Of a stretch of 64,000 nucleotides of DNA, positions 24,861-57,168 are shown piece by piece; the first letter of the stretch is position 1; every line of letters starts with the position of its first letter. Below the pieces are notes generated by a model that was not told where the DNA came from, did not search any database, and worked only from the letters and a program-made list of their open reading frames with translations. A program made the position numbers and the translations under genes. The stretch lies in NCBI GenBank assembly GCA_963716365.1, contig OY970307.1, positions 2,969,682 through 3,033,681 of the forward strand, in the 5' to 3' direction. This DNA comes from Candidatus Dormiibacterota bacterium. Its GTDB lineage: Bacteria; Chloroflexota; Dormibacteria; Aeolococcales; Aeolococcaceae.

Positions 24861-26237
24861 TCAGCGGCCTTTGAGCGTGGCCACCGCAAAGACCGTGCGC
24901 GCCATGATCAGGAGATCGAGCGCCACCGACTGTCGCTTGATGTAGTAGAGGTCATACGACAGCTTGACCGTCGATCCGTCGACCCCACTGCCGTAGCCGT
25001 AGTTCACCTGCGCCCAGCCGGTGAGCCCCGGACGAACCGAGAGACGCGTGTTGTAGTACGGGATGGTTTTGCGCAAGTCCTCGACGTAGTGTGGTTGTTC
25101 GGGACGCGGGCCCACCACGCTCATGTCGCCGCGCAGGATGTTCCACGACTGCGGCAGCTCGTCGAGGTGCAGCCGGCGCAGGATCCCGCCGACTTTCGTG
25201 ATGCGCACGTCGTCCTCGCCGGTCCACTGCAGCTCCTCGCGCGGTCGCACGCGCATGGTGCGCAGCTTGATGATGTTGAACGGCTTGCCGAAATGGCCGA
25301 CGCGCACCTGTTTGTGGAACACCGGACCGCGATCCTCGATCTTGATCGCCATCCAGACGAAGGGCAGCAGGACGCCGAGGACGATAAGACCCACGAGGCT
25401 TGCGATGACGTCGATGAGCCGCTTGAACAACGCGTACACACGCGAGGTCTCGCCACGCTGTTGCAGGGAGAGGAGCCAGCTCTGGCGGAGGCGTTCGACG
25501 AGCAGACGGCCCGTCAACTCCTCGTAGACGTCGGCGATCGAGCGCACCACCATGCCCCGGTCGTAGCAGTCGACGAGCCCCTCGAACAGCTCGGTGGGGA
25601 GATCTTCGTCGGCGCCGAGCACGATCTGGTCGGCCTCGCCTCCGGTGGCGGCGGCCGTCAGCCGGCTCCCGGCATCCGGATCGCGCGGGTGGATGGTTCC
25701 GACCACGCGGTAGAGACCGGCCATCTGGACGTCGACGTCCGCCCAGACCCGCTCGAGGATGTCGGCATCGGCGACGAGCACCATCCGCCCGGCGAAGATC
25801 GCCCGCGCGAACACGCGACGGTAGACCAGGCGCCAGCAGAGCACGGTGATCGCCGCCAGCGCGACCCAGATGAGGATCGTCGGGCGGGTCACTCCGTACG
25901 GGACTGCGAAGAAGACCGCAAGCAGCGCAATCGTTTCGAGGGTCACCGTCGTCGCGACAACCCGGAAGATCCCGCGCACGCTGACCGCCAGGTGCAGGTC
26001 GTAGGCGTCGACGACGAGCGCCGCAGCCAGCCAGATGACCGTCACGAGCACCACCCCCAGCCACGGGATCGTGAGCTCGTGGTGCTGGATGAGCCCGGAA
26101 CGCAGGTTGAACGCAAGGATCAGGGAGGCTGCGACCAGGATCGTGTCGCCTGCAGCAAGGAGCAGCTTTCGCTCCGAGACGAGAATTCCGCGGCGGCGCG
26201 CGGCGATCGTGGCGCCCGGAACGTCCTGGGCGATCAT
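24861..26237 (-). CDS. Priming polyprenyl-phosphate sugar phosphotransferase (WbaP/WcaJ-like)
   Basis: N-terminal TMs; KRLIDVI, KLRTM, DELPQ.WNILRGDMSVVGPRPE, PGLTGWAQVN, DLYY. Confidence 0.95.
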   Translation of the reverse strand: MIAQDVPGATIAARRRGILVSERKLLLAAGDTILVAASLILAFNLRSGLIQHHELTIPWLGVVLVTVIWLAAALVVDAYDLHLAVSVRGIFRVVATTVTLETIALLAVFFAVPYGVTRPTILIWVALAAITVLCWRLVYRRVFARAIFAGRMVLVADADILERVWADVDVQMAGLYRVVGTIHPRDPDAGSRLTAAATGGEADQIVLGADEDLPTELFEGLVDCYDRGMVVRSIADVYEELTGRLLVERLRQSWLLSLQQRGETSRVYALFKRLIDVIASLVGLIVLGVLLPFVWMAIKIEDRGPVFHKQVRVGHFGKPFNIIKLRTMRVRPREELQWTGEDDVRITKVGGILRRLHLDELPQSWNILRGDMSVVGPRPEQPHYVEDLRKTIPYYNTRLSVRPGLTGWAQVNYGYGSGVDGSTVKLSYDLYYIKRQSVALDLLIMARTVFAVATLKGR

Positions 26238-26247
26238 CGAGGCTAGC

Positions 26248-28503
26248 CTAACCCACAGCCACGATGGTCGCGTCGTGGTTGCTGAAGACGACCGTCCCAA
26301 GCTTCAGGACCGCCGGCGTCGCATCCGCATGCAAGCGATCGATGAACAGGAACCGCACGGAGTACTGCTGGGTGAGCACGCTGAGCGCGTTCGCATCGGC
26401 GTTGACGAAGACCGCATCGTTGAGCGCCTTCCTCCGCGCGAAGTCCGCTCCCACCTTCGTGCTGAGGGACGTGTTGATCTCGTAGCGGTTCGCGTCATAT
26501 CCCTCGACGAACACCTGCCGCTCCGAGAAGGCCGAGTAGTAGTAGTAGCGCCCGTCCGTCTCGGCGGGGTCGATCCAGTGGTTGCTCACGGCGAAGACGG
26601 TGTCGACCGGTGAGTGCTCGCGCAACCACGTCAGCGCTGCCAGCAGATCCGGCGTCAGGCCGCGCACCTTCTGGGGATCGGGCTGCGAGGTCGTGATCGC
26701 ACCTCCGGTCAGCGCCCTGCCGAGGGTCGGTGCCATCTCGATCGGGGACGCGAGCACCGATGCCGCCAGGAGCGGGATGAGCCCGAGCGCGACGAGGCCG
26801 GATGTGATGCGCCCATGCCGGCGACCCACCACCCGTCGCACCGCGATGAACACGAGCGCTCCGCCGCCGAGCACGGAGTACGTGGTCACCTCTGCGGGAG
26901 CGTTGCGGAGCGTGAGCGCCGTCACCGTGGCGATCAGGACGAGGAGGCCCACCCATCCTGCGAACGAGAGAGCGACCGCGCGCCGCGAGAAGGTGATCGC
27001 GCCACCGGCGTCCACCCAGACCAGGCGGAGGCCCGCGGCCGCCGCGATCGCTCCTGCGACGTACCCGGTGTTCTGAAAGTAGAGCTCGCTAAAGCCGGTC
27101 TGGTGGAACACGTTGCCGATCAGCACCCCCGCGACCAGCATGCAGAGGCACAACGACAGCGCCCGGAGCGCATCACGGTGCCGGCGGCGGAACAGATAGA
27201 GCGCCCCCGCAAGTGGAAGGAGCATGCCGGCGAGGGCCGCCACGTAGGCGAGCGGCAGCAGGACCGCCCGGATCGCGAGCGGTATCCCCGTGTTGCTCGC
27301 GTCGATCACCGGCAGCGTGCGAGCGAGCGGCGCCAGTGGATCGATCCCGGTATCCGCGGCGCCCCCGCGATAGATGATGAAAAAGGTGACCACGAAGACG
27401 ACGAACTCGAGGGCGAGCATCGCGAACGCCGCCCGGGGGATGGGCCGGCGCGTGACGAGCAGAACGGCGATGTACAGCGCGGTACCGATGAGCAGTACCG
27501 GCAGGATCGTGGCTTTGGCTCCCGCTGCTCCGATCATCAGGAGGGTGACCAGCGCCCAGTACCCGACGCCACTGGGCACGCGGGATGCCGCACGGTTGTA
27601 TTCGCTCCGCGATCAGGAAGAGCAACGCCACAAAGAACGTCAATCCGAAGAGGAACGTCCAGCTCCCCCAGAGTTGGCTGCTGAAGACGCTGAAGAAGGC
27701 AGGCGCGGCGCGCGTGTCGGTGGTGAGGTCGAGCGGGCCGAGCAGGAACACGACGGCGATCGCCACGACTCCGGTCCACGCCGCGCCGCTGAGCGCGCGC
27801 CCAACCATCAGCAGTTGCGCTCCAAGAAGCACCGCAGTCGGGATGAAGTTGAGCCGGAGTGCGATGGTCGGAATGCCGATATGCGTCACCTGGCTCACGG
27901 CGGCCATGTGGAAGAACACGAACCACTCGTAGGGGAGGGCCACGCCCGAGAGGCCTGGGTTCGTCGGCGGCCAGTGGAGCATCACCTCGGCTGTCTTGCT
28001 CATCTGATAGACGAAGTCGGGGCTGTACGCGACCGCGTTCTGTGTAGACGGCAGCGGGGTCAGCGGCAGGAACATGAGGGCCAGGTAGAGGACGCCGAGC
28101 GAGAGCGCCACCGCCGCCGCCCACATGGCGCGGCCCGAAAGCGGCTCCCCGGCCGGCTCCGAACGCGCCGGCTGACCGCGCCTCCAGATCACCAGCGCGC
28201 TGGCGGCTATCGCCACCACCGGGTAGAGGTCGATACAGGCCACCGGGCGCCCACGGCAGCGGTGGCGCTGAACGCGAGGATCTCGAGCGCGCTGCCGGCG
28301 GCTCCTCCGAGCGCCACCGTCTCGAGGAGGCCGGACCGGCGGCCACGCAATGCCCAGAGCACCGCTGCTCCGGGAATGGCCACGAAGGCGATCTCGTAGC
28401 CGAGAAACAGCAGGATCTGGCCTGCGGAGACGCCGCCGACAACCCAGATTGCGAGGGCGACCACGGTGACGAGGCTGGCGGGTGCGATCCCCCGGCGCGG
28501 CAC
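26248..28503 (-). CDS. Large polytopic membrane protein, GT-C-like, paralog 1 (apparent frameshifts near 28240 and 27590)
   Basis: Joined from three ORF fragments; shares HWPP..GLSG..LPYEWFVFFHMAA, GPLDL, GAKAT, NHWI..YYYY..FSER motifs with paralogs at 39066 and 41325. Confidence 0.75.
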
Positions 28504-28559
28504 CTGCGGAGTATGCCGATTGCAGTGGCAGGGCGACACGTCCGTATGATTCGCCCGTT

Positions 28560-29877
28560 GTGGACCTGACCCGTGACGGGCAGCGATTGGTCGATCGGAT
28601 CCAGGATCGAAGTGCCCGGATCGGCATCGTGGGCCTTGGCTATGTCGGCCTTCCGACCGCAATTGCCTACGCCGATGCCGGATTCACGGTGGTGGGAGTC
28701 GACACGAACCCCGACCGGTGCGCCGCGGTCATGGCCTGCGAGAGCTACATCGAGGACGTGAGCCCGGACGACCTGCGCCGAGTTCGCGAGGATGATCGGC
28801 TCACTGCAGTGACCTCACTCGAGGCTGCGGGCGACCTCGACGTCATCGACATCTGCGTGCATACGCCGCTCGGGGAAAATCGCGAGCCGGATACCTCGGC
28901 GATCGAGGCGGTCGGCGAGGCACTGCTCTCCGTGCAGCGACCCGGACAACTCGTCCTGCTCGACGAGCACGAGCTACCCGGGGACCACCGACGATGTGCT
29001 CCGGCCGATCCTCGAGCGCGGTGGGCTCGCGACAGGCACGAACGTCTTCCTTGCCTTCGCGCCCGAGCGGATCGACCCGGGAAACCGGCAGTACCGCCTC
29101 CGCAACACGCCGAAGATCCTGGGCGGCGTCGATCCTGCATCCACCGAGATCGCGCGCCTCGTGCTCTCGACGATCGTCGACACGCTGGTGCCGGTTCGCG
29201 ATGCGACCACTGCCGAGATGGTCAAAGCACTCGAGAACACCTTTCGCATGGTGAACATCGGCTTCGCGAACGAGGTCGCGAAGATCTGCCGGCGTCTCGG
29301 AGTCGACGTCTGGGAGGTCATTGACAGCGCCGCCACCAAGCCGTACGGCTTCATGCCCTTCTATCCGGGTCCTGGAGTCGGCGGCCACTGCATCCCGGTC
29401 GATCCAGCGTATCTGCAGTGGAAGATGCACAACCTCGAGTTTCCAACGCCGTTCATCGATCTTGGCAACGACGTGAACCGAGGTATGCCGGACTACGTCG
29501 TAAAACGCGCGGGCGACGTGCTCAACGAAGTTGGGAAAGACGTGCGCGGTGCGCGCGTGCTGCTGATCGGCGTCGCGTACAAGCCGAACATCGGGGATGT
29601 CCGCGAGTCACCGGCAATCGAGGTGGCGGAACGGCTCGAGGAAGGCGGCGCCGTGGTTCGTTACGTCGACCCGTATGTCTCCTCGCTCACCGTCAATGAC
29701 AAGACCGCAATTGAACGTGTCGATCTCACGGCGGCAGAGCTGGAGTCGAGTGAGCTCGTCGTCATCACCACGGCGCACGATGCAACCGACTGGACTCTCG
29801 TCCGTGAGCATGCACCGCTCGTGCTGGACACGCGCGGTGTGCGCGGTCAGGGTCGACCGGGGTGGCACACGCTTTAG
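28560..29877 (+). CDS. Nucleotide-sugar dehydrogenase (UDP-GlcNAc/ManNAc dehydrogenase family); apparent +1 frameshift near 28964
   Basis: GLGYVGLP, [E]STSYPGTT across the shift, APERIDPG, KALENTFR, PGPGVGGHCIPVDP, AYKPNIGDVRESP. Confidence 0.92.
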
Positions 29878-30840
29878 GCGCTTGCCCACGAAGCGAACGT
29901 GCGCCGCAGCCCTTCGTCAAGATCGACTGCTGCAGTCCAGCCAAGGCGCTCGGTTGCGCGAGCGGCCGACGGAACGCGCCGCCGGGTGTCCTCGAATCCC
30001 GCGCCGAAATGCGACTCGTAGCTCTCATGCACCATGGTGGAATCGCTGCCGGTCGCGTCGATGACCTTCGCTGCAAGGTCGACGATGGACGTCTCGGTGG
30101 ACTCGTTGCCGATGTTGAACACCTGACCCTCGGCGGACGGCATTTCCATCGCGAGCAGCGTGCCGTCGACGCAGTCGTCGATGTACGTGAAGCATCGCGT
30201 CTGCAGTCCGTCGCCGTATACGGTGAGCGCGTCGCCGGCGATCGCCTGGCGCAGGAAGTTGGCCATGACGCTGCCGTATCCGTCGGGATCCATGCGCGGT
30301 CCATAGATGTTGAAGTAGCGAACAATCACGGTGCGAAGTCCGTGTCGCGGCGTACGCAAGCGCGAGGTGCTCGTCGAGCGCCTTGGCCGTCGAGTACGAC
30401 CAGCGTTGCACGACCGTCGATCCGAGGATGCGATCATCGTCCTCGTGCATCGGGACGTGATCAGTTCTTCCATAGACTTCGCTCGAGCTGGTGATCAGCA
30501 CTTTCCGCTCGTGTCGCGCGCATGCTGCGAGCACGTTCTCGGTCCCGCGGCTGTTGACGAGCAACGATCCGAGCGGGTTCGCGATGATGTGCGCCACGCC
30601 AACCGCCGCGGCAAGGTGGAACACGCGGTCGGCACCGGTGACGAGCCGCTCGACGAGTTCGTCGTCGAGGATGCTGCCCTCGACGAGATGCACGGCTGGA
30701 TTCGCGGCGCTGCGCGAGAGGTTGCTGCGCCTGCCGGTCGACAGATCGTCCAGCACCGTGACGGCGTCGCCCGCTTCGGCAAGACGATCGACGAGGTGGC
30801 TGCCGATGAAACCGGCGCCTCCAGTCACCAACGTCCTCAC
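29874..30840 (-). CDS. NAD-dependent epimerase/dehydratase; apparent frameshift near 30345
   Basis: VTGGAGFIGSHL, SSSEVYG, YSTAK (YxxxK), then RYFNIYGP, GDGLQTRCF in a second frame. Confidence 0.92.
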
Positions 30841-30862
30841 ACGACGGCACCATAGCAGCCAA

Positions 30863-31946
30863 ATGGACCATGGAGCCGATGCCGCACTGCCCTTCGTGAG
30901 CGTGGTCATTCCCGGTCTTCAACGAGGAGCGCTACATCGGGGCGTGCCTCGACTCCGTCCTCGATCAGGACTACCCGCAGGATCGGTACGAAGTCATCGT
31001 CGCCGACGGGGGATCGTCCGATGGGACACGGAGCATCGTCGAGTCCGTTGCCGCGTCCCATCCGAACGTGCGCCTCATCGACAACCCCGGACGTACCCAG
31101 GCATCAGGACTGAACCTCGGGATCATGGCGAGCGCGGGTGAGTACATCGCGCGCCAGGACGGTCACGCCGAATGGACGCGGCAGCACCTGAGTCGCTCGA
31201 TCGCCTTGCTCCGGGAGTCCGGCGCGGACAACGTCGGTGGTCGCGCGGACGGTGTCGGCGCCGGGATGACCGGACGAGCGATCGCGCGCGCGATGCAGTC
31301 GCCGTTCGGTGTCGGCGGAGCCCGGTTTCGATACTCGACACGGCCGGAGGAGGTCGCGACGGTGTTCCCCGGAACGTTCCGGCGGAGCGCCTTCGAGCGT
31401 GTCGGCCTGTTCGACGAGGCCTACCCGCCGCACGAGGACTACGAACTCAACGATCGAATCCGCGCGACCGGGGGCCATGTGCTCTTCAGCCCGGACATCC
31501 CGACTCGCTACTACGTCCGCGATTCGCTGAGCGCGCTCGCGCGCCAGTACTTCCGCTACGGGCGGGCGAAGGTTCGGGTGGCACGGGCTCGCCCAGGCGT
31601 GATCCGCCCGTACCATCTCGCGGCCCCGGCGCTGGTGGCAGCTGTGCCGGCGGCGCTGCTCATGACGCTGAGCGGACGCGGTCGCCGGCTGGTCGTCGCC
31701 GGCAGCGCGGTATATGTCGCTGGGTGTGTTGTGGCCGGCATTCGTGCCGGGCGCGGTGAGCCGATGGCCGTCCGTCTGCGGATCCCCGGCGTCTTTGTGA
31801 TCCTCCACATGGCCTGGGGCACAGGTTTCTGGGCGGGCATCGCCGAGGCGGTGCGAGGCGTCGAGACTGGAGGCGGGTCGCCCCCGGCTCTGAGCTCAAA
31901 CGCGTCGAGCGGCGACGATCAACGAGGTCCCCAGCGGTACGGGTAG
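30863..31946 (+). CDS. GT2 glycosyltransferase (ExoA-like); apparent frameshift near 30912
   Basis: FVSVVIP / VFNEERYI..DQDYP..DGGSSDGT, RQDGH, EDYELN, RQYFRYG; C-terminal TMs. Confidence 0.9.
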
Positions 31947-32843
31947 CCTCGCGTCCCAATATCGCTCGGAGGCCGCAGCCACCCGCCCCACCGCATCCAT
32001 CGCAGACGATTGCCTGCCGAGCTGTCGCGCCGCCGATTGGTCGTCGCGGTGCATGCCGAGACGCCAGGGAAGCGCACGAGTCAACAGCAATTGCGGTAGG
32101 ACGGCGGCGAAGCGATAACTGATGTAGACCGATGCGAAGCCAGTCCGTCGCATGAGTTGCAGCAACGTCTTGCGGCGATATCGGCGATGGTGACCCGCGA
32201 AGATGTCGGCTTCGCTCCACAGGCCGGGGAACGCCGGGACTGAAGCGATGAAAAGGCCCTTGGGAGCGAGCACGCGATGGACTTCGGCCATCAGCAGGTC
32301 CGGGTTTTCAAGATGTTCGAGAACGTCGAAAGCACCGGCAGACGGGATCGACCCGGCAGGGAGCTCGAGTTCCTCGAGAGCCGCCTGGATGACGTGCTGG
32401 ATCCCTCTCATCGCCGCGCCGGTCGTCCCCCGGTCGCCCGGCTCGACCACAACGGGTGTGATCCCCAGCGTCTCGAGGTACCGAGAGACGACTCCGTTGC
32501 CGGCCCCGATGTCCCACAGCGCCGCAGGCGTGCCAACCCGTTGCAGGACATCACCGATGATCTCATTGCGCCAGCGAAACCACAGGCTTTGGTCCTCGAT
32601 TTCGAGGAGCGTCTGGTGGGCATCGGCCGAGAATGCAGACGACGGGACATCGCGATCGCTGACCCACACTCCATCACGGAGCGTGGCGTGATCGCCGATC
32701 CACCATCCGTGATCGTCACGGAGCCGAACGAACTCGCGAGCAGGAGCGCCTGACCCGGTGAGCTTCTGCAGGGTCGTGTTCAGCGGAACTGGCCGCGCGT
32801 GCGTCGCGACATCGCGATCATGTGCCTCACCTACTATCCTCAC
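31896..32843 (-). CDS. Class I SAM-dependent methyltransferase
   Basis: EDQSLWF, WDIGAGNG, FDVLEH, SVPAFPGLWSEAD, HHRRY. Confidence 0.85.
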   Translation of the reverse strand: MRIVGEAHDRDVATHARPVPLNTTLQKLTGSGAPAREFVRLRDDHGWWIGDHATLRDGVWVSDRDVPSSAFSADAHQTLLEIEDQSLWFRWRNEIIGDVLQRVGTPAALWDIGAGNGVVSRYLETLGITPVVVEPGDRGTTGAAMRGIQHVIQAALEELELPAGSIPSAGAFDVLEHLENPDLLMAEVHRVLAPKGLFIASVPAFPGLWSEADIFAGHHRRYRRKTLLQLMRRTGFASVYISYRFAAVLPQLLLTRALPWRLGMHRDDQSAARQLGRQSSAMDAVGRVAAASERYWDARLPVPLGTSLIVAARRV

Positions 32844-32922
32844 GGGTGAGGATCTCACGAACGGCGTGGGCTGGGGAAGGGGTCCGGCACGTGCACCCTG
32901 ACAAATCGAATGCTGAGGGACG

Positions 32923-34007
32923 ATGGAAACGGCGAAGACCAAACAGCCACGGTCGCGCGAGCACGAGCCGAGTCTGGGTGAGAATAGTCCGGTGCAGCCT
33001 CGTGAAGACCGTGCTGACGAAGGACAAAGTCCATACATCTCGGTGGTGATTCCCGTCTATCGTGCAGAAGGGGTGCTGCCCGAGCTGTTCGAGCGTCTGA
33101 CGACGACTCTTCGCACAATTGGACGGCTTTACGAGATCATTCTCGTCGACGACGGCAGCCCTGATGGTTCCTGGCCCGTGGTCCGAGACTTCGCGGCCGC
33201 GTCCGACAACGTGACCGGCGTCCTGCTGAGTCGCAACTTCGGTCAGCATCAGGCAATCAGCGCCGGTCTTGATCTCGCCAAGGGCGAATGGACCGTCGTG
33301 ATGGATTGCGACCTCCAGGATCCGCCCGAGGACATTCCGCGGCTGCTCGATGCTGCTGAAGGCGGCTACGACGTTGTGCTCGCTCGGCGCTCGGCTCGGT
33401 ACGGAACGCCGGTGAAGCGCGTCACATCGGCGCTGTTTTACCGAGTGTTCTCGGTGCTGTCCGGCTATCACATGGACCAGAGTGTCGGGACGTTTCGCAT
33501 CATGCATCGAACGGTTGTCGATGCGGTGCAGTCGATGCCGGAGTCGCCGCGCCTTTTCGGTGGGTTGGTCCGCTGGGTCGGCTTTGCAACGGGATACGTT
33601 GACGTCGAGCGCGCGGAGCGTCCGAATCGCAAGTCTGCGTACGGATGGAGCCAGCTCATCAAGTTGGCGCTCGACGGCATCGTTGCATTCTCGAATCGTC
33701 CGCTCTACATATCCATCTCCATCGGCATCACCATGTCGTTCCTGTCTGCCGCCTATGGACTCTTCTGGTCATCAACTTCCTGATCGACCGTCGAGTTGGC
33801 GTTCCGGGCTGGCTCAGCACCATGACTCTCTCGGCCTTCATCGGAGGCATCGTCCTCTTGAATCTCGGCATCATCGGCATCTATGTCGGCCGCATCTATG
33901 AGCAGACGAAACGCCGCCCTCTCTACGTGATCCGCTCCGTCGCATCGCCCGCTCCGGAGCCCGAAGCTCGGCCGGTTGGGCGAGCTCAGCGCACAACAAG
34001 CAGGTAG
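32923..34007 (+). CDS. GtrB/DPM-like GT2 (polyprenol-phosphate glycosyltransferase); apparent frameshift near 33765
   Basis: SVVIPVY, VDDGSPD, SRNFGQ, MDCDLQDPPE, FSNRPL; two TMs and YVGRIYEQTKRRPLY in a second frame. Confidence 0.9.
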
Positions 34008-34014
34008 CCAGCGA

Positions 34015-35161
34015 ATGCCGAAGATCTCTCAAGTCATGAGTCGAGCCGAGCAGGCGATGTCGATCAAGTACAACACCATGGTGTACGAGCTTCGCCAGCA
34101 GGGGATCGACGTGCTCGTCATAGAGTCTCGGTGAGGCGTACTTCGACGTTCCATCGTTCCCAATTGACGATCTGCCGAAGGACACGATCAACCACTATTC
34201 GCACTCGCGCGGCCTTCCCACCCTTCGCGACCAACTGGCGGACTACTTCGCGAGCGAGTACGGGGTGGGCTTCGACCCTGCGGAGAACATCATCATCACA
34301 GCAGGTTCGAAAGCCGCGATCTACATGACGTTGATGTCGATCCTGGATCCGGGCGACGAGGTCGTGTACACCGAGCCTGCCTGGGTGAGCTATCCCGAAC
34401 AGATCAAGCTCTGCTATGGCGTGCCCATCGGTGTGCCGTGCACCCGCGGGATCGCCGGCATCGCGGAGTACATCACGTCGCGGACGCAAGCCGTGATCAT
34501 CACGAATCCCAACAACCCCAGCGGATACGTGTACACCACCGAAGAGCTGCAGCAGCTCGTCGACCTGGCGCGCGAGCGGGACCTCTGGCTGCTCGCGGAT
34601 GAGGCCTACAGCGATTTTGCACCCGAGGGCGCGTTCGTTTCGCTCGGAAGCCTCGATCCTGACTGGGAACGTGTGGTCATCTTCAACTCCATGTCGAAGA
34701 ACTTCGGCATCTCCGGCTGGCGTATCGGCTACGTCATCGCCAACAGTGAGCTGATCGCGAACATTCTCAAGGCGAACCAGCACTTGATCACCTGCCCGGC
34801 GACGATCCTCGAATACTATCTGGCGAAGCACTTCGACGCGATCATCGAGGTGACGCGGCCGCAGATGCGCGCGTTGCTCGAAACACGGACCGCCCTGTCA
34901 AACCACATGCAGGAGATCGGTTTGTTGCGTCTCGAGGGAGACGCGACGTTCTATTTCTTCGTCTCCATCGGGCGCTCGTCGTTGGGATCGGAGGCCTTCT
35001 GCGATCGCCTGCTCAACGAACGCCATATCAGCGCGGTGCCCGGCGTGGGGTACGGCAACTCCTGTGACCGGTACATCAGGGTGTCATTCGGAACGGCGAC
35101 TCTCGAGGAGAACATGCGCGGGCTGAACGAGATCAAGGAACTCATCGAGCAGACGTCGTAG
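34015..35161 (+). CDS. PLP-dependent aminotransferase class I/II; apparent frameshift near 34122
   Basis: SLGEAYF, YSHSRG, TNPNNPSG, DEAY, SMSKNFGISGWRIG. Confidence 0.88.
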
Positions 35162-35178
35162 CGGAGGCCCGGATCAGA

Positions 35179-36368
35179 ATGCCGAGCGATTGGATCCACG
35201 TCCTCGGTGGTGGGGAGTGGCAGCTGCCGACCATCTCGTTGGCGAGAACGATGGGTTATCGGGTGCTTTGCACCGACATGTATGAGGAACGGCCCGGGTA
35301 CGAGCTGGCCGATGCCCATCACCGAGTCGACATCACAGACCGCGCGGGAACGCTACGAATCGCTCGCGACTACGACATCGGCGGCATCGTATGCGACACG
35401 ACAGATGCCGGCGTCCCCACGATGGCATTTGTCGCGGCGGAGCTCGGCCTTTCGGGGATCTCGCCAGAAGTCGCGGCGCGTTTCACGAACAAGCACCTCA
35501 TGCGTGAAGTGACCGACGCGGCCGGGGTTCCCAGCCCCGCGTTCGATCTGGTGCGAGATCTGGGGGACGCCGAGCGCGTCGCGAAGCTTATCGGGTTTCC
35601 ATTGGTCACCAAACCGATCGCGAACCAGTCGAGCCGGGGTGTTCGCATCGTGCGCAGTGCGGCGGAGCTGGGGGCCGCCGTGGCCGAGGCAGCGCGGTTC
35701 TCGAGCGGCGAGGGCATCCTCGTCGAGGGATTTCTCAACGGCGTGGAGGTGACCGTCGAAGGGTTTTGCATTGACGGTGAGCCGTACGTCGCGGGTATCT
35801 CGGACAAGAGTCATTTCGCGCACCGCCCCGAGGTTGCCAGCCGCCTCACGTACCCGGCAGACGCTCCGCCGGCGACGCTCGAGAACATTCGCGCGACGAA
35901 TCACGCCGTCGTCAAGGCGCTCGGAATGGAGACCGGCATCACGCATGCCGAGTACATGGTCGTCGGCGACACGGTCTACCTGGTCGAGATCGCGGCCCGC
36001 GGTGGCGGGAGTAGCGTCTATTCGCACATCGCGCCATTCCTCGCCGGCGCCCCGATCGCGGAGTTCTATCTCAAAAGCGTGATGGGCGAGAGGACGGACA
36101 TCCGACCGGACGGGCGTGCCCGCGCTGCCAACCTTGCGTTCTTCGACATCCGGCCGGAACCGTTCGCTCGATCGCGGGCCTGGAGGCGGGCCGCGCGATT
36201 CCAGGGGTCCAGGAGATCCTCCTGGAATTGGCGGTTGGTGACGTTGTCGGTGAGCCGCAGGATGATCGATCCCGAGTCGGCCAGGTCGTCGTGTTCGGAT
36301 CCACCCGTTCGGAGGTCATGGCCACGACGCAGGCGGTCTTCGATATGGTGGAAGTGGTGACCGCATGA
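35179..36368 (+). CDS. ATP-grasp domain protein; apparent frameshift near 36150
   Basis: VLGGGEWQ, NKHLMR, KP..QSSRGV, VEGFLNGVEVTVE, HAEY, EIAARGGG; corrected frame ends in an ATGA overlap at 36365-36368. Confidence 0.88.
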
Positions 36369-37814
36369 TCATCGACTGTCATACGCACATCTTCGAGCAG
36401 GGGCGCGGAGGTCCACTCGACCTTCCGGCCGGCGCCGATGACCTGGTGCGCGCAATGGACGAAAACGGCGTCGACATGTCGATCGTCCTGCCGTTGCCGG
36501 GCGTCGCGACGAACGAGTTCGTGCAGGATGCATGTTCGCGTTATCCGGGGAGGCTTATCGGTCTCTACACGCCGGAGTTTGACAAGCCTGATGCAACAGT
36601 GGCACTGATGCAGGCATTCCTTGCCAATCACGAGGTGCGCGGGCTCAAGATCCATCCAAGACACCAGCACGTCCGCGCGGATACGCCGGTGGTGCGTGAG
36701 GTGCTCGCGCTGGCTCAGGAGCGCGGCTTGGCCGATTTGTTCGACGTCTTTCCGTGGGGCCCCGACCTCGATGATCTCGGCATTCATCCCAACGCGTATC
36801 ACCGGCTCGCCCAGGAGATGCCCGATCTGCGAATGGTTCTGGCTCATGCCGGGGGTTACAAGGTGACGGAAGCGTTCCTTGTCGCCAAGTCCAATCCGAA
36901 CGTCTATCTCGACATCTCGTTCACGCCGATCTACTTCAAGGGTTCATCGGTGGCGAACGACATCCGCTTCATCTGCGGTCGCCTGCCCGCAGGACGCGTC
37001 CTCTATGGCAGTGACTTCCCGCACGTGCCGATGCGCGAGAGCATGAACAGTGCAGGGCAGATGGCCAGCGACCTTGATGCGCACAGCCGCGAGGAGCTGT
37101 TCGGTGGGGCCGCCGCGAACGTCTTCGGCATAGGTCAGCCGGATCGCCCAGTGCGTGACGTCGACGCCGCGGAGCTTCGCGCCAGATACCTCGAGCGATT
37201 CCGTGAGTTCGGCGTGGATCGCCGGACGCTCGGCTGGAACAAGGATTGCCAGGGCGCGCGTTTCGCGGCTGCGATTCAGCAGTGCAGTGCCGATGATCTG
37301 CGTGCTGTTCTCGATGTCGGCTGTGGGTTCGGCGACTCTGCTCACCTTTCTGCGGCAGACTGGGTGGCAGGGCAGTTACTTTGGGATTGACCTCGTGCCG
37401 GAGCTCATCGACGAGGCGCGCGTCCTGCACAAGGAGGACCGCATGGCCCACTTCGAGGCAGGGGATCTCGCTGCCTGGAGTGCGGAGTTCCAGCCATCCG
37501 CGGCGATCGCGATCGGGCTCTTCAATCACCGCCTCCACCAGGACAACCTTGCGTTCGCGACCGAGACAATCGATCAGATGTGGGGACTTGCGTCACATGT
37601 CGTCGTCTGCGATTTCCTGAGCACGTCGTCCGATGTCCCGGCTCGGCGTGACGACCTGTATTACGCGAACCCGGCCGCGATGTTGTCGATGGCGCAGTCG
37701 TACAGCCGGCGGGCGCTACTCCATCATGCCTATATGCCGTTCGAGTTCATGCTGAAGATCTGGCACGACGATGCGTTCAGCGTGGCCCGTCCGGTTTTCG
37801 CGCCGTATACGTAG
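36365..37814 (+). CDS. Amidohydrolase domain in frame with a class I SAM methyltransferase domain; apparent frameshift near 37337
   Basis: IDCHTH, GLKIHP, LAHAGG, YGSDFP; then LGWNK, VLDVGCGFGD continuing to GIDL...HAYMPFEF in a second frame. Confidence 0.75.
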
Positions 37815-37850
37815 CCCGCGTCAGCGGCGTCGTCGGCTGACTTGTCGCAG

Positions 37851-38995
37851 TTAGTGCGCTGAGAAGGCACCCACAGCGGCGATGACAGACTCGACATCGC
37901 TCGATGCCATGTTGGTGTAGAAGGGAAGGCGGATCAGCCGCGCGCTCACGTCGGTGGTCACGGGGCAATCAGATGTTGCGTTGAGACGCTGTCCAAACGG
38001 CGACAGGTGCAACGGTTGGTAGTGGAAGACCGCAAGGATGCCAGCCGCTCTCAGGTGGGTGATCAGCGCATCCCGCGCTTCCGGCGTCGGCAGGATCATG
38101 TGGAACAGGTGGTAGGGCGTCTCACAGTGCGCCGGCACGAACGGCAGCTGCACGCCGTTGACCTGCGCCCAGTCAGCGAGTCCTTCCGCGTACTGCATCC
38201 ATGCGGTGCGCCGGCGTTCCCACACCCATTCGCGGTCCTCGAGCTGTGCCAGGAGCATCGCCGCCAGGAGGTCCGATGGCAGATAGCTCGAGCCCAGATC
38301 CACCCACGTGTACTTGTCGACGAGGCCGCGGAAGAAGTTGCGCCGGTTGGTGCCCTTCTCGCGAATGATCTCGGCGCGGTCGACATACTGCGCATCGTTG
38401 ATCACGATTGCGCCACCCTCGCCGCACGAGAAGTTCTTGGTCTCGTGGAAGCTGAGTGCCGCGATGGCCCCGAACGTTCCGAGTGGTCTGCCGCGATACG
38501 TCCCCAGCAAGCCTTGCGCGTCGTCCTCGACCACCGGGATGCCGTGTCGCGTCGCGACATCCATGATGGTATCCATTCGCATCCGATGCCGGCGTAGTGC
38601 ACCGGAACAATCGCGCGAGTCTTGTCCGTGATGAGAGCCTCGAGCTTGGTCTCGTCGAGATTGAGCGTGTCCGGGCGTATGTCGATGAAAACCGGAACGG
38701 CGCCTCGAAGCACAAACGCGTTCACCGTGGACGAGAACGTGAACGACGGCACAATCACCTCATCTCCCGGGCTGATGTCGAGCAACAGTGCCGCGAGTTC
38801 GAGCGCGTGCGTGCACGAGGTGGTGAGCAGGACCGTCGCCTCCTCGAGCAGGCCACTGAGCAGCTCCTGGCATCGTCTGGTGAAATCCCCGTCGCCTGAC
38901 AGATGTCCGCTGTGCAGGGCCTGCGTGACGTACTCGTCGACCAGCCGCGTGTGCGTCGGCCGATTGAACGGGATCCTGAGTGGTGTGGTGGTCAT
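37851..38995 (-). CDS. wecE: dTDP-4-amino-4,6-dideoxygalactose transaminase-like (DegT/DnrJ family); apparent frameshift near 38582
   Basis: IPFNRP, SGDG.FT, LLTTSCTHALE, VHYAG, SFHETKN..CGEGG, REKGTNR..FFRG.VDKYTW..GSSY, AVFHY.PLH. Confidence 0.88.
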
Positions 38996-39065
38996 TGGGG
39001 CACGTCTCGATGCACGGCGTGCAATGTAGCGCCTCAGCCTGGCTCGGGGGGTGGCGCGCCGGGTG

Positions 39066-41314
39066 CTAGCTCACCGCCACGATGATGGCGGCCTGATTCG
39101 TGAACACACACGCCCCAGCTGGGCAACGGCAGGGTCGACCGTGCCGTGCATGCGATCGATGAACAGAAAGCGGACGGAGTACTGGTGGGTGAGCACGCTG
39201 AGCGCCTGTGCATCGGCGTGGTCGAACACCTCGTTGTTGAGCGTCTGGCGGTAGACGAAGTTCATCTCGGCCGGGCTGTCGGACCCGGTCGGGATCCCGA
39301 AGCGAACCGAGTCGTACGCTTCGACGAACACTTCGCGTTCCGAGAACGCGGAGTAGTAGTAGTAGCGCCCATCTGTTTCCGCGGGATTGATCCAGTGGTT
39401 GTTCACCGCGAACACAGTTGTGCCGGTGTGTGGTCCCGGAGCCAGTCGAGCGCCGTCAGGAGGTCAGGTGTGAGACCCCAGACCACCTCGGGATCGCGTG
39501 CGGCGATCGTGATGGGGGTGCCACTGACGATCTTCTTCACGGACGGCGCGACGAGAATCGGTGACGTCAGTGCGGACGCCGCGACGAGCGGGATGAGCGC
39601 CAGCGCCCATGCTCCCGACGCAGAGCGATTCCGGCGGCGCATGACGAAGGTCCACCCGACGACGAGTGCGATGCAGCCGGCTCCCAGCACGACATACCTG
39701 GCGACGAGCGCGTGGCCGGGGGTGATCGTGTGCGAGGTGGCAAGGATGGTGGCGATGAGCACGGCAAACGAGACGGCGAGCGTTACCAGCATTGATCGCA
39801 CCGACATCGGCAATGCCAGCCCGGCATCGAGCCATGCAAGACGGAGACCGGCGGCTGCAACGACGCAGCCGGCGACGAACCCGGTGTCGAGAAAATACTG
39901 CTCGCTGAAGGAGATCTGGTGCACCGCAGTTGCTATCGCGAGCCCTGCAATGAACGTGCAGATGCACAGGGCGTAGCGAGCGAGCTCGGCACGATGTTGC
40001 CGGCGCAGCAGATAGAGGGAGCCTGCGAGTGGCAGCAGGACGCCGGCGACGCCGGCAACGTACGCGAAGGGCAGCACGAGATGGCGAAGGGCAGCGTTGG
40101 TAATGCCCTCGGCGGCCACCATCGGGAACGTGCGCGACAGCGACACGAACGGGTCGATCGGCGTTCCCGGCGAACCGGTGCCGTAGATGATCAGGAACGT
40201 CAGCGCAAAGACCGCGACGCCGAATACCAGTGCGGCACAAGCGGCCATCACTGACGGCCGGTGGCGTCTGAACAGGGCAATCACGATGTACAGAGCGACG
40301 CCGCCGAGGATCACCGGCAGAATCGTCGCCTTGGCTCCCGACGCGCCCACGAGGAGCAAAGCGATCAATGCCCAGGACTGCGACATCGCTGACGCGTCCG
40401 CCAGGTTGGCATCTGCAGGCGTTCGTTGATCAGGTGGAGCAGCGGCAGAAGGAACGTCAATCCGAAGAGAAATGTCCAGCTCGTCCAGAGGTGATAGCTG
40501 AAGCTTTCGGCGAACGGATTCCCTCCGCCGTTGGTCGTGAGATCCAGAGGCCCCAGCAGGAACACGGCGACGATTGCCAGCACTCCGACCCACGCTGATC
40601 GCGCCATCGAGCGCCCGAGCGCCAGCAACTGGCATCCGAGCACGACGATCGTGGGCACGAACTCCAGCCGCAGCGCGATCGTCGAAATGCTCACGCGGGT
40701 CACCTGGCTAACCGCCGCCATGTGGAGAAAGACGAACCACTCGTAATGCAGCGGGCTGCCGGACAGACCGGACTCGTGAGCGGCCAGTGGTTCAAGGCCT
40801 GCGCGATAAGTCCGATGAAGAAGACGAAGTCGACGTTGTAGTCGACCGACGGTGGCGAGGACGGCAGCGGGACCTGAGGAAGGAACATCAGGACCAGATA
40901 GAGGATGGCCGACCGATATGGCCGCAGCCGCCGCCCACATCGACAACCCCGACATTCGAACTTCGCGCGTTTCCGCCGGCGCTGCATGCCGGCGAAGCCA
41001 GATCACCGACGCGCTTATCGCCAGAACAACGAGCGGGTAGACAGAGAAGAGCCCGCGCGCGCCCATCGCCGCGGTCGCGACAAACGCCAGGATCTCGAGG
41101 GTCTGACCGAGCGGCCAGCCGATCGCGATGGCGACGAGCGATCTCGGCCGGCGCCCGCGGACAGCCCAAAGCAGCGCGGCCCCCGGAAGCGCGACGAAGA
41201 GATCTCGTAGCCGAGAAACCGAACGATGTCGAACAGGGCGAACGCCAGAGACGACCCATATCGTCACAGCCACCGCGGAGACCAGCGCGACGGGCCGAGG
41301 GCGCGCGCCGGCAT
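39066..41314 (-). CDS. Large polytopic membrane protein, GT-C-like, paralog 2 (several apparent frameshifts)
   Basis: Fragments carry LHYEWFVFLHMAA, FLLGPLDL, WTSWTFLFG, GASGAKATILPV, NHWINPAETDGRYYYYSAFSERE, YSVRFLFIDR. Confidence 0.72.
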
Positions 41315-41324
41315 CAGTCCTGCG

Positions 41325-43559
41325 CTATCCCACCGCGATGATGGTCGCGTCCTCGTTGCTGAACACGACGTGGCCGAGCTGGAGGACCGCTGGGTTCTGA
41401 CTGCCGAGGAGAGCGTCGACGAACAGGTATCGCACGCCGTAGTCATGCGTCATGATCTTCAGGGCCTCGGTGTTCGCGTCGTCGAACACTTGGTCGTTCA
41501 AAAGCTGACGGTACGCAAACGTGGATCGCCGTCGGAGTCGAAATCCCAGGTGTGACACCGTCTCGAATGGGATCGTAGGCCTCGATGAAAATCTGCCGCT
41601 CCGAGAATGGCGCGTAGTAGTAGTACTTGGCATTCGTCCGCGCCTCGTCGATCCAGTGGTTGTTGACGGCAACACAGCATCCTGTGATGTGTGGTCGCGC
41701 AGCCAGTGCAGTGCCACGACGACTCCCGGCACGAGCACCGGCGTCGTCGTGGTTACGGGCACGCCGGATGTGATCTTGCGAACCGTTGGATACACGAGGA
41801 GCGGCGAGGTGAGCGCGGCAGGCCGCGATCAAGTGGGATCAGGCCCAACGCCAGCGCGCCTGTTCCGCGTGCCGTATCCGGCACGCAGCACGAGCGCGGA
41901 CAGGGCGAGAACGACCAAGGCCGCCGCGAACAAGACCGACGTACAGCTTCATCGTCGATTCCGGGGTGAAAACATCGTGCGAGGTGAATTTCACGACCCC
42001 GCAGAAGCAGGACGAGACACCCGTCGCGAACATGACGACGACGAACCGGCGCGAGACGGCGATCGCGCCGCCAAGATCCAGCCATGCCAGCCGCAGCCCC
42101 GCGGCGGCGACGAGAGCTCCGGCCACATACCCCATGTCCTCGAAGTACAGCTCGCTGTATGAGCTCTGATGCACGGCGCTGTGATCAGAATGCCGGCGAC
42201 GAGCATGCAGAGCGGCAACATCAGCGAGGCGATCTGCGGACGATGCCGGCGTCTGATCAGGTAGAGCGCACCCGCGAGCGGAAGCAGCACTCCGGCAAGC
42301 CCGGCCAGCATACGCGAACGGCAGCAGACGTCGACGCAGCAGAGCGTGATGAATCGTCTCCACGAAGAGCACGGGCGGCGTGGTCTTCAGCCACATGAGC
42401 GGCGTGAAGATCAGGTCCGGGGCCGACCCGCGTAGATGACGCGATAAGTGGCGACGAAGATCACGATGCCGAGCACCGCCGTCAGGAGCATGTTGAGCGG
42501 CACCGAGCGACGTATGAGGACGTGCACGACCACGTAGAGCACCGCACCGACGATGATCACCGGAAGGACGGTTGCCTTCGCGCCGGATGCGCCGATCATC
42601 AGCAGTGCCGATGAGCACCCATGAGCCCAATGTCGCTCCGGGCACGCCATGTGCTCGCTCGCATGCGCTCCGTGATCAGGTAGAGCAGGCCGAGGAAGAA
42701 CATCAAGCCGAACGGGAACGTCCAGCTGTCCCAGAGGTGAACGAACGCGTTGTCGCCGAACGGGCTGCCGTTCGAGCTTGCGATGAGGTCAAGCGGCCCC
42801 AGCAGGAACACGATGATGATGGCGACCGCTCCAGTCCACGCCGACCGGGTGAACAGGCGACCGAGCGCCAGCAGCTGACACGCGATGACAAGAATGCGTT
42901 GGCACGTAGTCGAGCCGGAGCGCGATGACCGGGATCGATACACCGGTCACGTTGCTCGCTGCGGCCATGTGGAAGAAGACGAACCACTCGTACGGCAACG
43001 GCACGCCGGAGAGGCCGGCGAGCGTCGGCGGCCAGTGCTGCGACACCTGGTTGATCAGCCCGAGGAAATACGGGAAGTCGATGTACTCAACCTGCACTGA
43101 GGCGCCAGGCAACGGCGCCTGCGGGACGAACATGATCGCGAGGTAGATGAGTCCGAGCGAGAGTGCCACCGCGACCGTCCACATGAGCGTCGTGGACATG
43201 CCGCTCGAGTCCGTATCCGTAGCGACGTCAGACCGTCGACGCCAGATCACGTAGCGCGCTCGGGACGATGACCACGATCGGGTAGAAGAAGAAGAGCCAA
43301 CGCGCTCCGATGACCGCGGTTGCGCTGAAGGCGAGAATCTCGAGCGCCTGACCGAGCGGCCAGCCGACCGCGACGCTGACGAGAAAGCGCGAGCGACGTC
43401 CGCGCACTGCCCAGAGCAGCGCGATGCCCGGGCAGCGCGACGAACACCAGGTCGTACGCGACGAACTTGATGATGTCGAGCGCGGAGACCCCGTGACGAG
43501 CCACCCACCAGAACGACGACGCCCACGAGCGTTGCAGGTGCGATCCCTCGGCGCATCAT
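41325..43559 (-). CDS. Large polytopic membrane protein, GT-C-like, paralog 3 (several apparent frameshifts)
   Basis: Fragments carry HWPPTLAGLSGVPLPYEWFVFFHMAA, FLLGPLDL, WDSWTF, GASGAKATVLPV, NHWID..KYYYYAPFSERQ, YGVRYLFVD. Confidence 0.72.
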
Positions 43560-43596
43560 CCGGGGGAGTATCGCCGATCCGCGCTTCGGGAAACTG

Positions 43597-45330: not shown

Positions 45331-45401
45331 GTGTCCTCGCCCACCTCGCGGAACCTATCATCTGGGCGCATGCCGGATCCTCGGGCGACAGTCGTGGCGG
45401 A

Positions 45402-46481: not shown

Positions 46482-46504
46482 CGAGCCCAGGACGCCCCGA
46501 GGCG

Positions 46505-46966: not shown

Positions 46967-47027
46967 CGCGGCGCCATAATCAGCGCGGCACCGACTTTCG
47001 ACTCGTCCGCCATCCTGGGGAAGGAAC

Positions 47028-49014: not shown

Positions 49015-49032
49015 GGGGCGGGGCAGAGCCGC

Positions 49033-50118: not shown

Positions 50119-50138
50119 GGTCGAACGAGACCGGCTGA

Positions 50139-56997: not shown

Positions 56998-57092
56998 GAC
57001 TGATCCTTTGTGAATATGCGCACGGCTCGCGGGTAGCCTACGGGACGTCAGCCCTGGGCGGCACGCCTCGGCCGAATCTCGACGACCGACAA

Positions 57093-57138: not shown

Positions 57139-57168
57139 CTGAAGTGGAGCCTGCCAGGAGGGCCGTCG

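Follow-up and report, generated by a model that had tools for sequence, protein, structure and literature searches.

Three paralogous GT-C-type membrane proteins in the glycan locus of an uncultured Dormibacterota genome: candidate extracytoplasmic glycosyltransferases

Three paralogous genes in a glycan locus

The stretch of DNA studied here (the window) is 64 kb in length with about 67% G+C, and belongs to the genome of an uncultured Candidatus Dormibacterota bacterium, assembled as one contig of 3.23 Mb with a completeness of 90.98% by marker genes. Within a glycan locus it carries three paralogous genes, termed here gene 1, gene 2 and gene 3, for large membrane proteins of the GT-C type. 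An earlier reading of this DNA from its letters alone (the sequence-only reading) had proposed three related genes that are broken in the track of open reading frames (ORFs), and all three are indeed found on the minus strand, each readable only via frame switching (Table 1). The limits proposed for genes 1 and 3 are borne out, whereas the end of gene 2, placed at 39066, is wrong by 5 nucleotides, its stop codon being located at 39071–39073 and its start near 41314. Gene 3 shows about 13 frame changes by frame-by-frame reading of the translations and at least six by the family profile, over 2.2 kb.

Table 1. Genes and other features of the glycan locus in the window.
Feature	Position	Strand	Remarks
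Gene 1, GT-C family, ~750 amino acids	26248–28503	minus	found by the family profile in three frame pieces
Gene 2, GT-C family	39071–41314	minus	five frame pieces by the profile; last gene of the WecE/ATP-grasp/ArnC-like cassette
Gene 3, GT-C family	41325–43559	minus	at least seven frame pieces by the profile; clade adjoining the 585-residue protein and Pse genes
DUF6541 membrane protein	22700–24848	minus	Pfam PF20176; one frameshift at 24368
Priming polyprenyl-phosphate glycosylphosphotransferase (Bac_transf, EPS_sugtrans)	24861–26300	minus	PF02397, E 8e-61; TIGR03025, 339.8 bits against a cut-off of 295.55
Nucleoside-diphosphate-sugar dehydrogenase	28482–29877	plus	UDPG_MGDP_dh N-terminal, central and C-terminal domains; TIGR03026, 291 bits against 189.8; frameshift at 28961
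NAD-dependent epimerase/dehydratase, like the C-terminal half of ArnA	29874–30909	minus	frameshift at 30344
GT2 (GT2a)	30900–31946	plus	Pfam GT2; two helices after the GT-A domain, hydrophobic residues 240–281
Methyltransferase	31896–33038
ArnC/PgfS/GtrB-like GT2, candidate polyprenyl-phosphate-sugar synthase	32917–34007	plus	frameshift near 33700
Class I/II aminotransferase, ATP-grasp ligase and amidohydrolase; sugar- or amino-acid-tailoring	34124–37390	plus	60–64% identity to the G008 trio
DegT-family WecE-type sugar 4-aminotransferase	37851–39070	minus	directly downstream of gene 2; frameshift at 38576
Soluble protein, ~577–585 amino acids	43597–45330	minus	directly upstream of gene 3; no hydrophobic helix
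Pseudaminic-acid genes: PseI/NeuB, PseH-like GNAT, cytidylyltransferase, PseC, PseB	45207–57399, scattered (45207–46966 and 53053–57399)
TagF-like protein	50139–51557
Wzx-type (Polysacc_synt, MOP) flippase	51506–53266	minus	PF01943, E 3.4e-16; 13 hydrophobic helices

Every motif listed in the sequence-only reading was found in the paralogs. All three share YSPDF/YNVDF/YIDF, HWP..GLSG..YEWFVF.HMAA, LLGPLDL, SWTF, GAKAT and SE.YF, together with the C-terminal motif WLR.H..NHW..YYYY..FSER..VR(F/Y)LF.D. The ortholog of gene 1 in G014, a genome of the same genus, is an intact ORF of 750 amino acids with 91–92% identity over residues 92–750. By tblastn, the intact relative of locus L008 shows 91–92% identity to gene 1 over residues 92–750, and 76% over its first 118 residues, which are affected by frameshifts; the identity is 48–60% to gene 2 and 33–63% per piece to gene 3. 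Summed E-values of this relative against the three paralogs range from 1e-87 to 0, and the similarity among the paralogs, judged from their sequences, is far beyond chance.

Of 24 genomes of the genus, 22 carry intact orthologs of ~750 amino acids, which start in a consistent way (M/V-x-R-R-G-I-A-P); no ortholog was found in 16 sampled genomes of the order's other family. Among 1.84 billion representatives, a profile made from nine orthologs matches 1602 clusters at E ≤ 1e-3, of which 534 reach E ≤ 1e-30. Among the matches listed, 120 close homologs are all named 'hypothetical protein' or unnamed, and a precomputed Pfam domain is given for none of them. The organism labels of P0226, P0250 and P0273 (the last identical to the DUF6541 protein of G014) are Candidatus Dormibacteria or Dormibacteraeota, which fits the soil origin and the G+C content reported for this uncultured group in the available text of PMC10608941. 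A scan of species-representative genomes gave 38 loci in distant relatives, hosted by Thermoleophilaceae, Gaiellaceae, Solirubrobacterales, other metagenome-assembled genomes (MAGs) of Actinomycetota and Syntrophomonadaceae, the latter represented among others by a cultured organism, Thermosyntropha lipolytica DSM 11003; single MAGs with a family gene are labelled Planctomycetales, Verrucomicrobia, Oscillospiraceae and Methanobacteriota. Sampling of 200 other genomes of the same phylum gave one weak match beyond the window's own genome, five candidates being scored per genome, so that absence is not implied. Besides its full-length copy, G023 has a further, strongly diverged partial match to the family (L070:13393–14421, 26% identity over 372 amino acids), located 3 kb from that copy and adjoining a WecE-like gene.

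Searches of the window's ORF pieces and of intact orthologs against Pfam and NCBIfam gave sub-threshold noise only (CPP1-like, DUF6798, CrgA and others). The PMT_2/PMT models (PF13231, PF02366) match neither of two proteins at E ≤ 10, none of 64 family members at E ≤ 0.01 and none of eight distant members at E ≤ 1, and STT3 (PF02516) gives no match at E ≤ 10 for full-length proteins, nor among the 64 members. DUF6541 (PF20176) matches one of the 64 members (E 0.001), and weak matches to DUF6798 occur in five of seven C-terminal domains (best E 0.0099, under its cut-off). The nearest named clusters in a protein atlas are DUF6541, DUF6077 and DUF2298. The T. lipolytica homolog is labelled 'Glycosyltransferase RgtA/B/C/D-like domain-containing protein' in UniRef, although current Pfam gives no match. 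No relation was seen by hhalign between the family profile and either the 585-residue neighbour or a 667-residue neighbour in G014. The literature search found no paper on the family, DUF6541, DUF6077, DUF6798 or PF20176, which is weak evidence of novelty for a family without a name; papers on viosamine/Fuc4N, GT-C, ArnT and undecaprenyl phosphate describe no such system in their titles and abstracts. The paralogs belong to an unnamed and undescribed sequence family of a known enzyme kind, the machinery itself being already known.

Origin of the frameshifts

Two comparisons bear on the breaks in the reading frames. The first is with a contig of G014, which is syntenic with the window at 10168–31892 and 41327–64000 with 88–92% nucleotide identity. 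The second is with contigs from four soil-metagenome runs of one study, compared over 26200–43620; this study may be the window's own source, and its contigs are not counted as independent support. The indel positions taken from the contigs are among the indel rows listed, and some breaks of genes 2 and 3 fall outside these rows or outside the parts that the contigs span.

Relative to G014, the window carries extra single bases at 20439, 24368, 27590, 28230, 28242, 28961, 30344, 30914, 47953 and 57024, which are spread across many genes and not confined to the three paralogs. The short-read contigs are without one base at 27592, 28233 and 28238 in gene 1, at 40381 and 40389 in gene 2, and at 28961, 30346 and 30915, and they carry one added base at 38576 in the DegT gene and at 42429, 43489 and 43506 in gene 3. 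Apart from such indels, several contigs match the window exactly; one of 1061 bases, for example, shows three gaps and no other difference. With these differences, all breaks of gene 1 are explained, as are one junction in gene 2 and three sites in gene 3. The proposal that the genes are hidden by frameshifts is thus confirmed and, because near-identical short-read contigs are without the extra bases, the frameshifts are traced to errors of the assembly, the genes being most likely intact in the organism. Programmed frameshifting and an alternative genetic code were also considered and were rejected, since the breaks vanish in the short-read contigs.

It could be argued that the genes are real pseudogenes, gene 3 above all, representing copies that decay after cassette exchange in a variable glycan locus. 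The frame changes of gene 3 stand against only about seven frame breaks in roughly 40 kb of other coding sequence compared with G014, and the genome is incomplete by marker genes despite being one contig, both of which agree with such an explanation. However, the indels of gene 1, the one junction of gene 2 and the three sites of gene 3 are absent from the short-read contigs, and like one-base insertions are present in the dehydrogenase, epimerase, GT2a, PseB and DUF6541 genes, those at 28961, 30346 and 30915 being again absent from the contigs. All conserved residues of the family are, moreover, kept in genes 1, 2 and 3. Decay of the three genes is therefore regarded as highly improbable.

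Isolated one-base insertions, with a few deletions, break the DUF6541, dehydrogenase, epimerase, GT2a, DegT and PseB genes. Assembly indels probably explain the 91% marker completeness of this one-contig genome, and gene calls of the assembly need short-read polishing, given the one-base insertions throughout. Contigs of three runs (depths 7.8 to 12) join window position 37413 to 26781 via the same 34 intervening letters; this points to a related strain in which the genes are ordered differently or a segment is shared.

Fold, conserved residues and gene context

An AlphaFold2 model was computed from 64 sequences for gene 1's ortholog in G014; its mean predicted local distance difference test score (pLDDT) is 91.0 and its predicted template-modelling score (pTM) 0.93. 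A Foldseek search with this model against the PDB gave 25 matches at E ≤ 0.001, with a best E of 2.4e-7 and a probability of 1.00 for STT3, DPY19, AglB, ArnT, PglB and AftA. Ranks 1 to 31 of those listed are all GT-C enzymes (STT3A/B, DPY19, AglB, ArnT, PglB, AftA, AftD, Pmt4, Emb and ALG12), and rank 32 (E 4.2e-2) is a glycosylphosphatidylinositol transamidase subunit. VIA-align, run against 48,161 chains, likewise ranks 13 GT-C enzymes first, with Z from 15.0 to 8.7: AglB (3waj) at Z 15.0 (root-mean-square deviation (rmsd) 6.2, 439 residues aligned), STT3B and ALG12 at 14.5, ArnT (5f15) at 13.7 (rmsd 5.5, 417 aligned), DPY19 and ALG9 at 12.5, AftA at 12.3, PglB at 12.1, AftB at 11.6, Pmt1/2 and Pmt4 at 11.5, EmbA/B at 11.4 and AftD at 8.7. 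The high-confidence model and both fold searches thus agree with the GT-C architecture put forward in the sequence-only reading, and the comparison that it called for returns a GT-C(A) fold and not a transporter. A transporter fold was rejected, as transporters appear only at a Foldseek probability of about 0.25 or below. No Wzy, WaaL or SEDS chain is present among the top 50 structural matches listed, an absence which is not conclusive.

Helix counting in the model gives four N-terminal helices and a core of 13, followed by an alpha/beta C-terminal domain. Nine of the 13 VIA alignments begin at model residues 115–127, and therefore the first four helices (residues 2–108) are an addition before the canonical core. 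Core helix 1 spans residues 123–147 and the next loop (148–207) carries the Asp of the YSPDF motif, D162. The acidic residue that had been assigned to the first external loop is conserved in 64 of 64 sequences, but its loop follows the fifth helix and is the first outer loop of the core only, because the four extra helices precede the GT-C core. The C-terminal domain (613–750) aligns with the globular domain of AglB-S2 (3vu0; Z 8.5, rmsd 2.3 Å, 108 aligned) and with the C-terminal domain of PglB (3aag; Z 7.4, rmsd 2.6, 106 aligned). As far as the model shows, this similarity is one of fold only, and the alignments with ArnT and AftA also extend to residue 750.

Invariant in all 64 sequences are D162, Y191, G186, P44, G45, G70 and W625, while R216 and K329 are kept in 63, E660 and R661 in 60, and H176 in 59. 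All three window paralogs keep D162, H176, P178, Y191, R216, K329, E660, R661 and D721, as do the homologs of Thermosyntropha, the Methanobacteriota MAG, Solirubrobacteraceae and Gaiellaceae; in gene 1, D162, the run H176-W177-P178, Y191, R216 and K329 are all seen. The helices of the model and the positive-inside rule would place R107/R108 inside and the D162 loop outside, and with R107/R108 cytoplasmic, D162, H176, Y191, R216 and K329 would all be situated at the outer face. GT-C enzymes bind their lipid-phosphate donor at this face, and the Asp of their first loop is catalytic. The WWDYG motif, which defines the STT3/AglB/PglB family, is not visible in the family sequences; the nearest stretch is N-H-W in the genus and RAF, RFY, NHY or NYR elsewhere.

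The DUF6541 protein of the locus appears to be of the same kind. The model of its G014 ortholog (pLDDT 74.6) has ArnT as the top Foldseek match (E 7.9e-6) and AglB in VIA (Z 13.8), its C-terminal domain matches 3vu0 (Z 8.3), and the alignments begin near residues 88–100. Going by the model, it has a GT-C(A) fold, which assigns a fold to a Pfam domain of unknown function. The models of DUF6541 and of the family are alike in having an N-terminal extension (about three helices in DUF6541) with an invariant Pro-Gly, a GT-C(A) core and an AglB-like C-terminal domain. In sequence, however, there is no significant similarity (profile-profile probability 1.3%) and hhalign shows no relation. With DUF6541, the number of GT-C-type proteins encoded in the locus rises to four, and no Wzy is recognisable. 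A DUF6541 protein is also present at L021:259–2418.

The GtrB-like GT2, the priming transferase and the Wzx flippase that had been recognised in the locus from the letters alone are all found (Table 1). No Wzy- or WaaL-like protein was detected in the locus by Pfam/NCBIfam, helix and fold scans, as that reading had also noted, and the other large membrane protein, DUF6541, folds as GT-C. The best NCBIfam matches of the GT2 at 32917–34007, which has a C-terminal helix, are PgfS (E 4e-48) and ArnC (NF007986, E 1.3e-44), both below the equivalog cut-offs. GT2a has the build of a GT-A domain plus two helices, but its best family matches are not of the ArnC/GtrB type; it adjoins a gene-1-type family gene of other species in L065 and L072. 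The epimerase/dehydratase best matches UDP-4-keto-pentose/UDP-xylose synthase (NF008872, E 2.8e-23, below cut-off). Gene 2 abuts the WecE-type gene, and the same cassette holds the ArnC-like GT2 and the ATP-grasp ligase. The C-terminal piece of the WecE-type protein alone scores 314.9 bits against NF008687 (dTDP-4-amino-4,6-dideoxygalactose transaminase), for which the whole-protein cut-off is 375, and RmlA-like and RmlB-like genes are located elsewhere in the genome.

The pseudaminic-acid pathway is near-complete, with PseB (476 bits) above its cut-off, and the locus probably makes a glycan that contains nonulosonic acid. The soluble protein upstream of gene 3 has no Pfam or NCBIfam match; it adjoins gene-3-type genes in L063, L064, L066, L068, L069 and L070. 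A homolog of it is present in a Solirubrobacteraceae MAG (L027:18000–19415, 37% identity over 499 amino acids) beside TagF-like and Pse genes. An FkbM methyltransferase lies with the pseudaminic-acid genes of the window. Beside it, on the plus strand at 47028–49014, are two overlapping frames of 593 and 355 amino acids, which are conserved in the genus and have no family match; they are probably split by the insertion at 47953. At C1:1607733–1608846, far from the glycan locus, a GtrA-like domain directly follows a second, weaker DPM1/GtrB-like GT2 match.

The sequence-only reading had suggested a survey of neighbourhoods for GtrB and sugar-pathway genes. When the window's locus proteins were compared by tblastn with the 38 distant loci (five of them less than 8 kb long), 24 loci showed an ArnC/PgfS-like GT2 no more than 10 kb away and 20 showed a DegT aminotransferase. 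In L022–L025, the GT2 starts 39–177 bp after the family gene. The window's genome has four such GT2 matches in 3.23 Mb, so that about one chance co-occurrence would be expected in 38 loci, a rough estimate and not a matched control. Four distant loci were annotated in full, and in all of them the best matches of the GT2 are ArnC and PgfS. The T. lipolytica operon (L055) has the order RmlB-RmlA-WecE-GT2-ATP-grasp-ABC-family gene, with RmlB at 438 bits (cut-off 365) and the WecE-type aminotransferase at 526 bits (cut-off 375); no priming transferase or Wzx is present among its ORFs scanned. The Methanobacteriota MAG (L043) encodes RmlB-like and RmlA-like proteins, the GT2, two small EamA proteins (best matches ArnE/ArnF), WecE (577 bits) and the family protein, and the Solirubrobacteraceae MAG (L030) encodes WecE (563 bits), the GT2, an ArnF-like protein, a WbqC-like protein, an acetyltransferase and the family protein. 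In the Gaiellaceae MAG (L023), the ArnC-like GT2 directly follows the family gene and an acyltransferase is present, with no aminotransferase among the ORFs scanned. GT2, aminotransferase and ArnE/F-type flippase thus all accompany the family gene in L030 and L043, and the first two in L055. In L055, the ATP-grasp ligase is separated from the family gene by an ABC transporter (NMT1-like binding protein, permease and ATPase; 7353–9978), all in one direction.

These neighbourhoods bear on the possibility that the paralogs, at least gene 1, act in the manner of PglB/AglB as oligosaccharyltransferases (OSTs) or ligases, which would transfer en bloc a Wzx-flipped polyprenyl-diphosphate oligosaccharide to a protein or wall polymer. 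The top two structural matches, AglB and STT3B, are OSTs, the C-terminal domain resembles the globular domains of AglB and PglB, and the locus has a priming transferase and Wzx with no recognisable Wzy or ligase; gene-1-type genes furthermore abut the priming transferase in L008, L010, L011, L012 and L072. However, neither an STT3 match in Pfam nor a visible WWDYG is found, and the partners across phyla are the ArnC-like GT2, WecE and ArnE/F-like proteins, with neither priming transferase nor Wzx in the Thermosyntropha ORFs scanned. As the ArnT and AftA alignments reach residue 750, the C-terminal domain may not be specific to OSTs. We consider such a role unlikely.

The paralogs were also compared across the genus. 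In 13 of 13 further loci of the genus the family gene lies within this glycan locus, in agreement with the link to glycan loci that had been proposed. It usually takes one of three positions: by the priming transferase and GT2a, by the 585-residue protein and NeuB, or as the last gene of the WecE/ATP-grasp/GT2 cassette (seen in G008), with exceptions in L061, L062, L067 and L071, for example. The gene 2 cassette is found in G008 (L060) with a family gene, at 60–71% identity. In a maximum-likelihood tree, gene 1 falls in a clade of six rows (support 95/93) and gene 3 in one of eight (100/100), while gene 2 is placed in an unresolved group, nearest by path to the G008 gene of the same cassette; the copies of the genus are jointly monophyletic against three distant members. 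Separate tree groups with their own locus positions across the genus fit different substrates, as the sequence-only reading had supposed in assigning each paralog to a different sugar. Window positions 31892–41327 (9.4 kb, with gene 2) are replaced in G014 by a 7.5-kb cassette (L020:5697–13233) encoding a 667-residue protein of no known kind, two methyltransferases, a different PgfS-like GT2, an epimerase and a transketolase-like protein. By sequence comparison, this is a serotype-like exchange of cassettes between flanks of 88–92% identity.

Gene 3 has only about 60–68% identity to its G014 counterpart over the N-terminal part. Positional orthologs that diverge so strongly between such flanks are also known among serotype-specific polymerase genes, and one or more paralogs might be the missing polymerase that replaces Wzy in a Wzx-dependent pathway and links repeat units on the outer side of the membrane. 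Among the membrane proteins that the locus encodes, none was found to resemble Wzy, and one of the 64 family members has a match to Wzy_C (PF04932), at a marginal E of 0.0012. Against this, the best-matching solved GT-C enzymes are single-step transferases or OSTs, neither top-50 list holds a Wzy, WaaL or SEDS chain (inconclusive, as said), and the Thermosyntropha operon shows no repeat-unit machinery in the ORFs scanned. Replacement of Wzy is therefore a distinctly improbable explanation. Nevertheless, an en-bloc transferase or polymerase role may stay alive for at least one paralog, because gene 1 adjoins the priming transferase, the C-terminal domain is OST-like and no Wzy or ligase is recognised.

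Proposed function and known systems

Structure and conserved gene context together support the GT-C interpretation, and the three paralogs are probably polyprenyl-phosphate-sugar-dependent extracytoplasmic GT-C(A) glycosyltransferases of Arn/Gtr-like three-component systems, their frameshifts being assembly errors. According to this proposal, a cytoplasmic pathway would make a nucleotide sugar, which the ArnC/GtrB-like GT2 would load onto polyprenyl phosphate; the lipid-linked sugar would then be flipped across the membrane, and the GT-C protein would transfer the sugar, outside the membrane, onto a surface glycan or protein. Asp162 in the first outer loop of the core is the predicted catalytic residue, and Arg216 and Lys329, at the outer membrane boundary, are predicted to hold the lipid phosphate. 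The flippase of the window might be Wzx or, speculatively, the N-terminal four-helix module, as GtrA and ArnE/F are missing from it.

Several observations weigh against this proposal. Searches of the window gave neither a GtrA-like nor an ArnE/F-like flippase; the genome's single GtrA domain is located at 1608508–1608846, outside the window, and the genome has no ArnF match. There is one strong ArnC-like GT2 in the genome for three paralogs, and 14 of the 38 distant loci have no GT2 by tblastn. The Z-scores of OSTs (15.0, 14.5) and of users of polyprenyl-phosphate monosaccharides (14.5, 13.7) lie within about 1 of each other and, because they are tied, the fold cannot tell the donor type. In sequence, nothing was found to tie the paralogs to a known GT-C family: no Pfam family is common to the 64 members (E ≤ 0.01) and none is found in eight distant members at E ≤ 1, and a profile of the whole protein, or the C-terminal domain alone, has no relevant sequence match in the PDB. 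The breaks of gene 3 far outnumber those of its neighbours and only three were seen corrected, so that this gene may be decaying. Finally, function, donors and acceptor are, for every member of the family, what we infer from structure and context.

For gene 2, the sugar of its cassette is most likely a 4-amino-4,6-dideoxyhexose, possibly N-acylated, and hence the pathway would be Arn-like. Genes 1 and 3 probably add other residues, or act at other acceptor sites, on the product of the pseudaminic-acid-containing glycan locus, since they fall in two further clades, each with its own sugar genes nearby. As most hosts are Terrabacteria and one is an archaeon, lipid A is unlikely to be the acceptor.

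A wider and more tentative idea, which we would rate as doubtful, is that the family belongs to an unrecognised Arn-like pathway, widespread in soil Terrabacteria (Dormibacterota, Thermoleophilia and Syntrophomonadaceae) and some archaea. In cells that have no lipid A, it would attach a 4-amino-4,6-dideoxyhexose, positively charged and carried on polyprenyl phosphate, to surface proteins or to polymers of the envelope. Where a locus has neither ArnE/F nor GtrA, delivery or flipping of the lipid-linked donor might be aided by the four N-terminal helices, a module specific to the family that contains an invariant Pro-Gly and conserved Glu residues embedded in the membrane.

If the proposed function is true, about 1600 clusters of soil 'hypothetical proteins' would gain a functional assignment, and there would be a first point of entry to the ways in which uncultured Dormibacterota construct and diversify their cell surface. 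The WecE-type linkage predicts the product, namely an amino-dideoxyhexose added outside the membrane. On confirmation of the activity, a new glycosyltransferase family would probably be established in CAZy, as was GT136 in 2024 according to the available text of PMC11127046.

The sequence-only reading had spoken of an undescribed glycosylation system, which is overstated. A GT2 synthase, a flippase and a GT-C enzyme form the described three-component scheme of extracytoplasmic glycosylation, well known from Gtr/Arn-type systems (PMC11127046, in its available text), and the GT-C sequence family alone is undescribed. The window has the synthase-type GT2 and the GT-C proteins, with Wzx/MOP as a protein that could serve as flippase, much as a MATE-family flippase is proposed to do for the GT136 system of Citrobacter youngae in that same text. 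L030 and L043 encode the full set of three components.

Among the known systems, the best structural matches of the family are to the GT66 enzymes STT3, AglB and PglB (Z 14.5, 15.0 and 12.1), with which it shares the 13-helix core, the acidic residue of the first outer loop and the C-terminal fold. It differs from them in having neither the STT3 match nor WWDYG, in its extra N-terminal helices and in its gene partners, which point to monophosphate-linked monosaccharide donors. Like the Gtr-type systems (GtrA/GtrB/GtrC, PgfS-PgfM and GT136 of C. youngae, as outlined in the available text of PMC11127046), the locus co-encodes a polyprenyl-phosphate-sugar synthase of GT2 with GT-C proteins, has several GT-C paralogs and consists of cassette-like genes that vary between related strains. 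Unlike those systems, it has another GT-C sequence family, no GtrA in the locus and a sugar that is probably an amino-dideoxyhexose. With ArnT (GT83) and the Arn pathway (ArnB, ArnC, ArnE/F and ArnT), the family has in common the GT-C(A) fold and, in its relatives, the joint presence of a 4-aminotransferase, an ArnC-like GT2, ArnE/F-like proteins and the GT-C protein. In the window, a sugar dehydrogenase gene and the gene of a decarboxylase like the C-terminal half of ArnA are also located beside gene 1. However, the family has no sequence match to the PMT_2/ArnT models and carries four extra N-terminal helices, and its aminotransferase is of the WecE type, pointing to a 4-amino-4,6-dideoxyhexose, and not of the ArnB type.

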